Positions 2,964 through 64,000 of a DNA stretch of 64,000 bases are shown here, one piece after another (position 1 is the stretch's first letter; each line of letters opens with the position of its first letter). The stretch is from assembly GCA_963790475.1 (NCBI GenBank), contig CAWBOS010000010.1:288001-352000 (forward strand), in the 5' to 3' direction. The translations under genes were made by a program, and so were the position numbers. Under the pieces are notes generated by a model. It had not been told where the DNA came from and made no database searches. It saw only the letters and a list, made by a program, of their open reading frames with translations. This stretch comes from an uncultured delta proteobacterium (lineage in GTDB: Bacteria; Desulfobacterota; RBG-13-43-22).

Positions 2964-3446
2964 ATGTTGAATTTCAATCTAACTCCCGATCAATTGGAGC
3001 TTCGCCAAAAAGCCAGGACCTTTGCCCTCCAAGAGGTGCTTCCGGTCTCCTGGCAATATGATGAAAAGGACGCGACACCTCTCTTCCTATTGAAGAAGGC
3101 CTTTGAAGCCGGTCTGACGAACGGCGATATCCCTAAAGAATACGGTGGCCGGGGGGCCGGTCTGGTCGAGGCCGCCCTGGTCACCGAAGAGATTGCTGCC
3201 GCCCGTCCGGGAATCGCCACCTCCCTGTTTGATAATTCCCTGGGGCTGAGGCCCTTGATCCTTTCCCATAATGAGCCCCTTAAAGAAAAAATCCTTTCCA
3301 AGATCGCCTGAGAGTTCCAACTCATTTGCTTTGCCACATCCGAACCGACTACGGGATCGGATGTGGCCGCTATGCAATGCCGGGCCGCAAAAGAGGGAGA
3401 TGATTATATCCTCAACGGTACCAAATACTGGGTGACGAATGCCGGG
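2964..3446 (+). pseudogene. Acyl-CoA dehydrogenase fragment with an internal stop and 3' truncation
   Basis: ACAD N-terminus; after TGA 3309-3311 the same frame continues [15 protein letters not shown]...[12 protein letters not shown], then homology ends. Confidence 0.85.
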
Positions 3447-60618: not shown

Positions 60619-62444
60619 GGCAGGGTCAAATGGCGAGCCGATAGCTTAACGTGTTGAAAAAGTACTTCACCTCTATCCCCCTACGAGGTAGAATCTGGTA
60701 GGGGGATTTTTTTGATCAAAGGACCAAACCAGCTCGATGAACGTGTCCCGATAGAAGTCGGCGGGATTCAGGTCAACTTCTGCAAGAATCCACAGTGCCA
60801 GAACTTCGGAGTTCCGGCAAGTACCAAGAGACAGCCCAGAGGGAAAGGAGCAGAGGAACGTGGCCGGGATACTTATAATGTAGTTGGTTCAGGCCGGGGC
60901 ACGCCCATGCTACGGTGCTGTTTTTGCGGCCAATATCCAACGATAAAGAGTAACAAAGCCATTCATGAAGAGCTGAGCCGCTTTTGGAAGCCTTTTGAAC
61001 CCACGGCGATCCCGACCTGCCCAAACCAAGACTGCCCGAACCACCATATAGATACCGAGAAAGGCAAGACTCACTACCACTCATTCGGACGGACCAAAGC
61101 AGGATCTATACGCTATCGTTGCAAGGCCTGCGGCAGAACATTCATTACCGCTTCATCACCGACAATCCGGCACCGGAAACCCCACAAGAATGCTGTCATT
61201 TTCCGTCTTCTGGTCAACAAGGTACCTTTCCGTCGTACCTGCGAGGTGGAAGGGATCTCCATGCCGACTCTTTATCGGAAGATTGATTTTATTCATCGGC
61301 AGTGCCTTTCCTTTGCGGCTGAGCGGGAACGCAATCTTCCCACCATGCCTCTCGCCCGCCTTTATATCGGAGTTGATCGGCAAGACTATATGATCAACTG
61401 GTCGGACGCCAAGGACCGGAGGAACATCATTTTCCGGGCTGTCGGCAGTGCTGACAACACGACCGGTTATGTGCTCGGAGTGCATCTCAACTTTGATCCC
61501 TTAATGGATCCGGATCTTATAGAAAGGGATGCGATTGCCTCGGGTGATTACGAAGTAAAGCCGTCCTATAGACGATATGCCCGCCTGTGGCTCCGGCGCG
61601 ATTACCTAGAGGCCATCAAGAAGGCCCGAGCCCAAAGGTTTGGTGCCCATACAGGATCCTTGAGGGACAACATAGCTGCCACCTATCGGGATGCCGAAAA
61701 TAGGGATGATGTCGAAGTGTTCGAAAGGAGGGACGCTGCGACGCTTTTTATGTGCGGATCAACTCCGAGGCAACCATTGATAAAAAACGCCAGATCCTGG
61801 CAGATAATCGACGCCACATGGAGGCCATGAAGCACCAGAATCCTGACCTGAAGGATTGGCAGGTAAAACTTCTCATGATAAAAGAGAAGATGGCCCAGGT
61901 GGTCAACATTGGCACCTGGCAGGATCGCTGGGTGGAACACCCCTTCCCGAATATGGGAGAGCCCGATAAGGCCATGTGCTATCTGACGGATATCCAGGGG
62001 TATGATGAGGACCATCTCGCCTGGCTCTACAACAAGGCCAGCCTCCACGCTATTGACTGCTTCTTTATGCAGGTCCGGAGGAGATTGTCTTTGCTGGAGC
62101 GACCGATCAGCAGTTCGGCCAGCCCGGGTCGTCGTTGGTTTGGTTATGGCCCTTACAAACCGGTTATAGTCGGCAAACTACTGGACATCTTTCGTGTTTT
62201 CTATAATTATGTGGAAGTGGGGAAGAACAAACAAACCCCAGCTATGCGGCTGGGGCTGGCAAAGGGCAAGATAACTGTTGAGGACATTATCTATTACCAG
62301 TAATAAGGCTGCTCAGAATTTTTCGGTCATGTCTCCTTGCGGAAGATTTCTTTTTAAAAAAAAGGACCGTTGATATTGAATCAACTGTCCTTTTTACTTT
62401 TCTTCAACACGTTAAGCTATCGGCTCGTCTAATTTGGCTCTGCC
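60619..62444 (+). mobile_element. IS1595/IS1-like insertion sequence with ~46-50 bp terminal inverted repeats
   Basis: Ends GGCAG...; perfect 25-bp IR core CGAGCCGATAGCTTAACGTGTTGAA at 60634-60658 and 62403-62427. Confidence 0.8.
60712..62303 (+). pseudogene. Zinc-ribbon transposase split near 61740
   Basis: CKNPQC, CCFC, CPNQDC, RYRCKAC, HTH; the C-terminal RVFYNY...TPAMRLGLAKG is in another frame. Confidence 0.7.
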
Positions 62445-62479: not shown

Positions 62480-63119
62480 ATGGTAAACCCCCGGCTGTGC
62501 CGGGGGACTCACAAAAGTTTGACAATTACGGGAATATATGAAAGCCCCTCTAACGTGAACCGCTCAAAATTCACAGAAAGAGAGGCTTTCAATGAGAAGC
62601 ACACAGAGTTTAAGTCATACGAAGTGGGAATGCAAATATCATTTAACCTGGATACCAAAATTTCGGAAAAAGGATTTATATGGGGAGCTTCGGAAACATT
62701 TAGGAGAAGCGATCCGAGAAATGGCACGGTAGAAGCGGAAGTGAAGTATTAGAAGGACATCTTATGTCGGATCATGTCCATATGCTTGTTTCGATTCCGC
62801 CCAAATATGCTGTTTCGCAAGTAGTGGGTTACATCAAGGGGAAAAGCGCAATTCATATTGCGAGAGAATTATTTGGGAAGAAAAGGAATTTCACTGGCGA
62901 AGAATTTTGGGCCAGAGGATACTATGTCAGCACAATAGGTAAGGATGAAGAGGCTATCCGTAAGTATATCAAAGAGCAGGAAAAAGAAGATCAGCGAATT
63001 GATCAATTAACGATGTTCTAAGTAAAGAGCCGCCACCTTTGAGGTGGCCCATAGGTTTTTCAACCGCTTTGAGCGGTTCACATATTTCAAGCCTCCGGCT
63101 TTGCCGGAGGTCTGGTGAC
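62480..63119 (+). mobile_element. IS200/IS605-family element (tnpA only)
   Basis: Left hairpin CCCCCGGCTGTGCCGGGGG, right hairpin GCCTCCGGCTTTGCCGGAGGT, HUH transposase between them. Confidence 0.88.
62592..63021 (+). pseudogene. tnpA: IS200 Y1 transposase with a premature TAG and a frameshift
   Basis: SLSHTKWECKYHLTWIPKFRKK...MAR*; then DHVHML (HUH), FWARGYYVST, IRKYI. Confidence 0.88.
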
Positions 63120-64000
63120 GTGCGCCTGGCATGATGCACTGGCCGACCTTCCAGGAATGAACCTGGAAGTAAAACATCCACCGTTACCGGACGGAAGGAT
63201 AACGCCAACAAGGCAAGGGCATTCTCAGAAATGAGGAGTCCGGAGGAAGCATGAGGCAGAATCTGTGTACGTAGCGAACAGCGAACCGACTATATGGCCG
63301 TGGGGAGGAGGTCGAGTTGACGTGACTAAACGAGACCGGATATCCGGTGAACCGAACCGCTGTGAAGTTGGACGGGATACAGGGAGGTTGGTGCATCTTA
63401 CCCAGGGAAGCCCTCCTGCACTGGAACCTAATTGGCGTCAAGGATTTCATAAAACCGAACCGCGAAGGCGAACCCGAAGCGGGGTAGGGTGCAAAGGGTG
63501 GCAGATTCACGGGTAGTACTGAGGACTCAGGGCCGATGAAGCCTGGTAACAGAGCGAAGGATAAAACCCTGACGACCGGGAGAAGGAAAAGAAGGGAAGG
63601 AATCCGATAGAGAACCCACCGCTGGCGATGGTAAACAAACAACTTAAGGACCTATCCTGAAGCCTGGGCAGCCCAAAGATCGTCCTTGGGATGCGGGAAG
63701 CCGTGGACGAGAGGCGATGGAGACGACATTAGAGAGCCGACTTAGAGTTACGATGGTACAAGAAGGGACCAGAAAACCGAAGGGGGATGAACGAAACCCG
63801 CAAGAGGGTACCGGACGGGAAGAGACTTGGACGGTCAACAGGCATCCGGTCCCCAGCCCAAAGGGCTGCTCGTAACCCGGCAATCTTTAATGGAAGAGCA
63901 AGTCACGGAGGAAGTTGGAAGTGAAGGTTAGGGAAGCACTGGAAAGGGTCTACGAACCGAGACGACTGCGGGAGGCATGGCACCAGATTAAACGAAACGC
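63120..64000 (+). mobile_element. Group II intron, 5' part (runs off the window)
   Basis: GTGCGCCTGGCATG 5' consensus; purine-rich structured ~800 nt; alpha/alpha'-like GTTACC (63183) / GGTAAC (63545); RT ORF start downstream. Confidence 0.85.
63921..64000 (+). CDS. ltrA: Group II intron reverse transcriptase/maturase, N-terminus only
   Basis: GGAGG RBS, GTG, LERVYEPRRLREAWHQIKRN matches the RT0 'L..AW..VK.N' motif. Confidence 0.75.
   Translation, partial: MKVREALERVYEPRRLREAWHQIKRN

Follow-up and report, generated by a model that had tools for sequence, protein, structure and literature searches.

An uncultured delta proteobacterium carries, at the end of the stretch of DNA analyzed here (64,000 nucleotides [nt]; hereafter the window), the 5′ part of a group II intron that begins where an insertion sequence (IS) of the IS200 type, IS-A, ends. 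We consider it likely that this intron belongs to an IIC-type lineage that gave up transcription terminators for IS200-type (Y1 transposase) elements, at whose right-end sub-terminal hairpin it now inserts, and that it is intact and recently mobile. A sequence-only reading of the window had proposed an intron lineage that homes to IS200 right ends, and the copies and relatives described below bear that proposal out. The source genome is labelled G000 (the window is G000:C10:288001-352000) and its sister genome G018; positions given without a contig are those of the window. Papers are cited by PubMed Central number.

The first bases of the intron, GTGCG at 63120, directly follow the spacer CTGGTGAC, and the Rfam model RF02001 (group-II-D1D4-3) matches the DNA downstream (63222-63398; 63.5 bits, E = 2.3e-11). 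The hairpin, the spacer, the terminal TGAC and the intron start that had been read from the letters are confirmed. Retrieved in full, the intron runs from C10:351120 to about C10:353279 (about 2160 nt), and its open reading frame (ORF) is intact and specifies a 428-amino-acid (aa) intron-encoded protein (IEP). A Pfam scan of the IEP found RVT_1 (4.1e-33) and GIIM (2.4e-20) and no endonuclease (En/HNH) domain. A second copy of the intron, at C10:894090, differs from it at no more than 4 positions between -2 and +2161. Because domains V and VI are conserved, the ORF is intact and the two copies differ at so few positions, the intron appears to be intact and to have moved recently. The RNA of about 800 nt that precedes the ORF, which had been thought long for a typical IIC intron, is real (63120 to about 63915) and owes its length to a 93-nt domain II and about 300 nt of domain IV lying 5′ of the ORF; a long 5′ part also occurs in the terminator-seeking outgroup introduced below.

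The 3′ end of the intron, ...CCUACCAGAU(U), is common to about 30 relatives, and the DNA beyond it is unrelated. The final U may instead be the first exon base; ...CCAGAT is joined straight to GTGCG in locus L127 and in a contig from an RNA library. This joint, found at about 1880-1910 of the DNA contig L127 and in a metatranscriptome contig (run X16 against L001, joint 3632 to 1501), has two possible origins: an intron circle, or insertion of one intron behind the domain VI hairpin of another. Among the contigs of four runs that were compared with the locus, none bridged the empty site, a result to which we attach no weight. The active-site motif of the reverse transcriptase (RT) of the IEP is WADD, the usual form being YADD (L001, about 2985-3000, residues about 230-236), and it seems to be fixed in the clade: the peptide YGRWADDF retrieved many relatives.

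The right end of the IS was defined from copies that lack the intron; in the IS-A family, and likewise in a second element, IS-B, these end at the base after which the intron begins in occupied copies. A blastn search with the 800 nt upstream of the intron found three intron-free relatives of IS-A in G000 (about 72% identical over query positions 163-800), all of which end at the same base. The family thus has 4 copies in G000 that end ...GGAGGTCTGGTGAC (...GGTGAC) and then diverge, 1 of them occupied by the intron, and the position of the junction is more than a coincidence. The second intron copy is preceded by CCACGCCC-TAT-GGGCGTGG and ATTATTTAC, which form the right end of IS-B, an IS200-type element of 691 bp with an intact 179-aa Y1 transposase (PF01797, 3e-38). 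All 6 copies of IS-B end ...GGATTATTTAC; 1 continues into the intron and 5 continue into unrelated DNA, in which the bases directly after TTAC vary (T, G, A, T, T). The transposase of IS-B and that of an intact IS-A-family relative (C10:394358-394981) are about 33% identical. G018 contains a further element, IS-A′, with 10 right ends, of which 6 have the intron directly after ...GGTGAC and 4 are empty, and a transposase-less variant of the IS-A′ end that is occupied once and empty once. In total, 7 of the 9 intron junctions in G018 lie at IS-A′-type right ends, and the occupied IS copies sit in differing genomic contexts. In two unrelated IS200 families in G000 and a third in G018, therefore, the intron sits between the last IS base and the flanking DNA.

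We then looked at target sites across the lineage. A scan of a genome collection gave 60 loci, and a metagenome scan gave 203 relatives, of which the best 80 (65%-89% aa identity) were kept; a class-wide genome search matched 5 of 21 genomes, all of one genus, and added little beyond G018. After removal of L063-L076, which duplicate G000 and G018 loci, intron 5′ ends were placed by means of a profile covering the initial 200 nt. Of the 75 candidates obtained, 67 have at least 30 nt of 5′ flank (56 distinct flanks). A hairpin of at least 7 Watson-Crick pairs with at most 1 mismatch, ending 4-13 nt before the intron, precedes 60 of these 67 junctions, compared with 53 of 2000 random positions in the same loci. 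The loop is 3 nt long in 47 of the 60 hairpins and the spacer 6-9 nt long in 58. Position -2 is A at 64 of the 67 junctions, position -1 is C at 53 and T at 14, position -4 is T at 56, and any base occurs at -3. The common target is thus a hairpin whose GC-rich stem measures 8-9 bp and whose loop has about 3 nt, with 6-9 nt behind it that end (T)NA-C/T. Most flanks read T-N-A-C/T at their end. As in the right end of IS-A, several hairpins in series precede many of these junctions.

A Y1 transposase gene ends within 400 nt upstream, on the same strand, at 32 of the 67 junctions; if only junctions with a visible tnpA or a flank of 700 nt or more are counted, the share is 32 of 44. The 12 junctions with such a flank and no tnpA comprise 4 that resemble right ends, 1 that resembles a left end, 1 domain VI hairpin, 5 other hairpins and 1 with none. 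Judged by eye, L004, L094 and L150 have a right-end-type series of hairpins without an intact tnpA, and L100 has the 3′ end of tnpA behind an inserted UPF0236 transposase. In L143 (1130-1168), the hairpin before the intron corresponds to the one at the left end of IS-A-family elements (GGTAAACCCCCGGC...), not to a right end.

The next relatives found (36%-38% aa identity, mostly from Paenibacillus) served as an outgroup with 9 junctions. Textbook terminators precede these introns: a T-run is present at 8 of the 9 junctions, whereas at least 4 consecutive T residues occur in the last 10 nt at 2 of the 67 junctions of the clade, and an upstream transposase gene was found at none of the 9. Hairpin targeting is therefore common to the clade and the outgroup, and it is the clade that the IS200 right-end habit marks. 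It is this contrast, together with the frequencies of the hairpin and of tnpA in the clade, that supports the proposed shift of the lineage.

Hairpins of suitable geometry are abundant. In G000, 204 sites combine a perfect 8-bp stem with a loop of 3-4 nt and a spacer of 7-9 nt that ends AC; 10 of them are right ends of IS-A or IS-B, and both introns of the genome (2/2) are at such ends. A 15-copy repeat of this genome, ATACCGGC-GAAA-GCCGGTAT followed by CCAGAAC, has the same hairpin-spacer-AC geometry and no intron. That both introns are found among 10 of 204 sites, with the repeat empty, argues for a specificity or accessibility of IS ends beyond the generic geometry, although the number of introns is small.

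To describe the ribozyme, we aligned 36 distinct relatives. The basal helix of domain I (coordinates of features are collected in the table below) is paired in 99.4% of cells, and its middle pair is UA in 26 sequences, CG in 8 and GC in 2, so that one pair of the helix shows compensatory changes in 10 of the 36 sequences. A second domain I helix joins 63133-63138 to 63392-63397. Overall, 96.0% of cells in the proposed helices are paired, a level reached by 0 of 500 shuffles, and slid controls gave 35%-48%. Two helices of domain II (alignment columns 335-347/419-443 and 348-353/370-376) show many compensatory changes. A basal helix TTACCC/GGGTAG that RNAalifold had proposed for domain II showed 86% pairing and no compensatory change, and was replaced by the domain I helix 63125-63129/63402-63406. 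The sequence GGAGGAAG (63242-63249), which contains the AGGAA motif, aligns to the conserved UCUGAAGGAA of RF02001 and is invariant in the 36 relatives.

We identified a candidate for exon-binding site 1 (EBS1) by comparison with the outgroup. There, the hairpin that RF02001 models has a loop whose positions 3-6 covary with the last 4 exon nucleotides (33 of 36 pairs). By homology, EBS1 of the window's intron would be GTGA, within the loop ACGTGACT. This location agrees with the layout of the O. iheyensis IIC intron. GTGA forms 4 of 4 pairs, one of them G-U, with the TTAC of the IS-B site. When 51 distinct intron/exon combinations are taken together, EBS1 pairs with positions -1 and -2 in 101 of 102 cells, including two A-T pairs, and 200 of 5000 shuffles reach that number. 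RNA pairing would thus account for the terminal A-C/T, through the first two EBS1 bases, and for that part of the target alone. A GTAA/GTCA word about 60 nt into the intron, which a column scan had brought up (0.85), was rejected: it lies in the first hairpins of domain I and is invariant with deviant exons.

What class the intron belongs to is indicated by several features. Among proteins of known structure, the best matches of the IEP are IIC RTs, GsI-IIC (6ar1; 293 bits) and that of E. rectale (7uim; 259 bits), with LtrA at 137 and TeI4h at 102. Domain V was located by eye and by conservation, RF00029 (domains V/VI) giving no match in the intron at E ≤ 1; by inspection it is 31 nt long (GAGCGGCUUACC-UGGCC-GGUACGAGCCGUUC), compared with 34 nt in the outgroup, and in its shortness it resembles domain V of IIC introns, whose distal stem is 2 bp shorter than that of IIA and IIB introns. 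The domain VI hairpin has an unpaired A. IIC introns have a CGC triad in domain V and an AGGAA ε′ motif specific to them, and their splice sites lie 3-11 nt after varied stem-loops, a definition of the 5′ exon by so little pairing that has been termed “perplexing” (PMC1702495). Because it lacks an endonuclease, matches IIC RTs best, and has the AGGAA motif, a short domain V and a hairpin 5′ exon, we describe the intron as hairpin directed and endonuclease-less, and as probably class-C-like: of structural class IIC or a close neighbor of IEP class C. The IEP types g6, U1 and U2 are neighbors of class C, and their introns too come after terminators, some of them “I-shaped” and lacking U-tails (PMC8919778), and the clade may belong to one of these three types.

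Several results weigh against this reading of the lineage. The domain V triad is AGC (G-A-G-C-G-G...) in all of about 30 relatives rather than CGC, and no terminator is present, so that with just 2 consistently paired exon bases the intron departs in three respects from the IIC description in PMC1702495. The comparison of the IEP covered RTs of solved structure, and its class is provisional. As to the junction, all 8 empty IS-A-type ends continue with T, for which reason the true end of IS-A could lie 1 nt past the intron start point, and we infer the coincidence of the intron junction with the TnpA cleavage point from the IS boundary in the comparison of copies. As to pairing, GTGA forms 3 of 4 pairs with the window's TGAC, with a G-G mismatch at -3; across the combinations, pairing is seen in 26 of 51 at -3 and in 31 of 51 at -4, both equal to the shuffle means. 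RNA pairing therefore offers no explanation for the conserved T at -4. No transposase match was found at 35 of the 67 junctions, 23 of which have less than 700 nt of flank, too short to judge. Sites outside IS elements exist: L014 is inside an ORF for a TPR protein, L050 follows an MFS gene and L011 an SLT gene, L090 and L129 sit after other hairpins, L127 follows the domain VI hairpin of another intron copy, and no hairpin was found before the introns of L026 and L087 among the 67 junctions. The data are mostly metagenome contigs, and the ten junctions of G000 and G018 do not count as independent lineages. Single-stranded DNA, finally, has a role that we infer.

With these points in mind, the reading that we favor, a lineage shifted to IS200 right ends, suggests how the intron might move. 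The intron ribonucleoprotein (RNP) would recognize the hairpin extruded as single-stranded DNA on the top strand of the IS, the form that TnpA uses at replication forks; in IS200/IS605 elements, what is recognized of the ends are the hairpins that the top strand forms when it is single-stranded on the lagging-strand template (PMC5027513). The intron has the same orientation as tnpA, which suggests that it enters the IS top strand, whose hairpin TnpA recognizes. Reverse splicing would follow A-C/T, and copying would start from a replication primer, as may be expected because the IEP lacks an endonuclease; introns without one use replication primers (PMC4424553). The IS would supply many identical and harmless sites, and possibly read-through transcription from tnpA, and its own sequence would stay intact. 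A bolder claim, for and against which we find about equal grounds, is that these introns form a distinct and widespread IIC-type sublineage whose natural homing site is the TnpA end signal of the IS200 family, a third class of folded single-stranded DNA target after terminators and attC, with recognition almost wholly structural or protein-mediated and just 2 bp of RNA-DNA pairing.

The alternatives differ in what they make of the IS. The intron might be a generic hairpin seeker, for which any stable hairpin plus a few bases ending A-C/T would serve; IS200 ends would then merely be the commonest such sites, and no adaptation to the IS would be involved. The hairpin sites outside IS elements (L011, L014, L050, L129 and the domain VI hairpin in L127) fit this idea, as do the pairing of just two exon positions with the intron, the varied stem-loops used by IIC introns (PMC1702495) and the I-shaped terminators without U-tails used by class C and its neighbors (PMC8919778). 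We nevertheless regard it as unlikely: both G000 introns occupy the small IS-A/IS-B share of the 204 sites, most G018 junctions lie at IS-A′-type right ends while the 15-copy repeat stands unoccupied, and T at -4 is frequent without having an RNA partner. The reverse order of events, in which the IS inserted beside the intron's 5′ end or TnpA moves the IS and the intron as a composite, draws on the established fact that IS200/IS605 elements insert beside a specific short target (PMC5027513) and on the resemblance of the intron's domain VI hairpin plus 8-9 nt to the layout of a right end. It is very improbable, as IS copies with and without the intron have identical sequences as far as one common final base, and the left flanks of occupied copies lack a hairpin+NAC target. 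Moreover, near-identical introns (4 differences) follow two IS families whose transposases are just about 33% identical, the 3′ flanks are unrelated directly after the intron, and the intron is also found away from any IS.

Sequence-directed homing was the mechanism that the earlier reading had favored, through a 4-bp pairing of the terminal TGAC with an EBS1 GTCA at 63437-63440, thought to lie at the domain Id position. The GTCA is indeed present in the loop of a hairpin and complements TGAC perfectly; L005 also combines GTCA with a TGAC exon. Its position is what does not hold: the loop belongs to domain II, beyond the closure of domain I at 63402-63406. A 4-nt match within a ribozyme of about 500 nt is expected by chance. 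GCCA stands at this place in the closest relatives with the same TGAC target, the L004-type intron, of which at least 7 copies occupy TGAC sites; the hairpin contains the complement of the last 4 exon nucleotides in 1 of 29 relatives, the window's own intron; and the covarying EBS1 of the outgroup is in a different hairpin, the one modelled by RF02001. We therefore give pairing through this GTCA hardly any credence.

IS-A itself shows the traits of the IS200 group: a Y1 transposase, sub-terminal hairpins at both ends, and ends common to the 4 copies of its family and, in IS-B, to 6. TnpA of this group cuts 3′ of a short motif set a fixed distance behind the right-end hairpin. The PF01797 (Y1_Tnp) fragments of its tnpA lie in different frames (profile positions 2-36, 6.9e-06, and 49-121, 1.2e-22), and tblastn with the transposase of the intact relative also aligns to IS-A in two pieces. 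IS-A is present as a single copy of its exact type in its genome and is probably nonautonomous, unable to move by itself.

Features of the window discussed in the text (all coordinates in window positions)
Position	Strand	Feature	Basis
62482..63119	+	IS-A, IS200-type insertion sequence, about 638 bp, left boundary approximate	Copies in genome, Y1_Tnp matches
62487..62505	+	Left-end sub-terminal hairpin CCCCCGGC-TGT-GCCGGGGG	Sequence read; conserved in three related copies
62592..63021	+	tnpA (Y1/HUH transposase) split in two frames, 62592-62732 (46 aa) and 62764-63021 (85 aa)	PF01797
63032..63078	+	Inner right-end hairpins GCCACC-TTTGA-GGTGGC (63032-63048) and AACCGC-TTTGA-GCGGTT (63062-63078)	Sequence read
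63092..63110	+	Terminal right-end hairpin CCTCCGGC (63092-63099)-TTT-GCCGGAGG (63103-63110), perfect 8-bp stem	Sequence read
63111..63119	+	9-nt spacer TCTGGTGAC, last IS bases, TGAC at 63116-63119	Boundary from intron-free copies
63120..64000	+	Group II intron, 5′ part, 881 nt, cut by window end	RF02001 match; second genomic copy
63125..63129	+	Domain I basal helix, 5′ strand CCTGG, pairs with CCAGG at 63402-63406	Covariation
63244..63248	+	AGGAA motif, IIC-type ε′ bulge	RF02001 alignment
63310..63337	+	Predicted EBS1 hairpin, stem GGTC/GACC, loop 63320-63327, EBS1 GTGA at 63322-63325	Homology
63410..63502	+	Domain II (93 nt), distal hairpin loop holds GTCA 63437-63440	Covarying helices
63915..64000	+	IEP ORF start (TTG 63915 or GTG 63921)	ORF listing

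Some further observations concern the surroundings of the intron and its relatives. A full copy of IS-B lies at G000:C10:353377-354067, outside the window and about 97 nt past the 3′ end of the intron, so that the local order of IS-A, intron, 97 nt and IS-B is a small nest of mobile elements that depend on single strands. Directly upstream of IS-A (60712-62303) are two overlapping ORFs of 372 aa, with several CxxC pairs, and 183 aa; neither has a Pfam match, and the pair may represent a single gene with a frameshift, from a transposase-like family not yet described. In two IS200 copies with the intron, another transposase gene interrupts tnpA: a 497-aa ORF in L023 (1247-2795) and one for a UPF0236 protein in L100 (65-1504). 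In L011 (2800-2866), the hairpin-plus-spacer target (33 nt, ...CCGCTGGAAACCCAGCGGTTCATAT) is tandemly duplicated just upstream of the intron. In L019 (3484-3918), fewer than 100 nt separate the intron ORF from an IS200 transposase gene upstream of it; the gene would then be within the 5′ part of the intron, or that part has been replaced.

Reviews name three target specificities of bacterial group II introns: homing sites, terminators and attC (PMC4424553). If the reading set out here is true, the IS200 right-end hairpin would be a fourth, and it would link two mobile elements, each of which needs single-stranded DNA at replication forks. Under the bolder claim, the intron would act as a hyperparasite, reading the fork-exposed hairpin that the transposase also reads; it would remain when the IS excises, could seed new sites, and could influence IS200 transposition. 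The sites offer a natural target series for hairpin recognition by IIC RNPs, with many different stems, the same geometry and two paired bases. For annotation, it matters that IS200-end hairpins can pass for “I-shaped terminators”; metagenomes from sediments and wetlands commonly contain IS200 ends occupied by introns. We found no description in the full-text literature of hairpin-directed introns at IS200/IS605 right ends, and class C introns next to IS200 elements may already be listed in supplementary tables (neighborhoods in PMC7306698, sites in PMC8919778). RT-HNH introns are known inside IS605 elements of Anabaena and Nostoc (PMC4810608), and one report has an IS605 element that merely adjoins intron-bearing cassettes (PMC7923331).

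Four known systems come close. Class C/IIC introns such as B.h.I1 and GsI-IIC (PMC1702495, PMC4424553, PMC7306698) likewise encode an IEP with RT and maturase but no endonuclease, and use a 5′ exon made of a stem-loop and a very short intron-binding site 1 (IBS1), with no room for IBS2 and an essentially free 3′ exon; the predicted EBS1 hairpin has the same place as in terminator-seeking relatives. Unlike theirs, the target stem-loop of the present introns is usually an IS200 right end rather than a terminator, the exon ends (T)NA-C/T rather than with a T-run, 2 exon bases pair consistently instead of the 3-4 bp reported, and domain II (93 nt) and the 5′ part of domain IV are enlarged. IIC-attC introns (S.ma.I2; PMC4424553, PMC7923331) are also a IIC sublineage that swapped terminators for the folded single-stranded DNA of another mobile system, but here that DNA is an IS200 right end, not attC, and no integron is involved. 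The use of a multicopy IS as a safe site is shared with RmInt1 in ISRm2011-2 (PMC3035460, PMC4238363) and with the F4 introns of T. elongatus, which occupy a conserved site in ISEL1, an element of the IS200 family (PMC2882425). Those introns are IIB and make long EBS1/EBS2 pairings to one conserved internal IS sequence, whereas here different IS200 families with unrelated hairpin sequences are entered at a structural end signal. IStrons (PMC4227781, PMC10690162), like the intron described here, physically tie a self-splicing intron to the end of an IS200/IS605-family transposon; in contrast, they are group I ribozymes fused to IS200/IS605 or IS607-type elements and move as part of the transposon, whereas the present element is a group II retroelement that moves on its own, just outside the IS.

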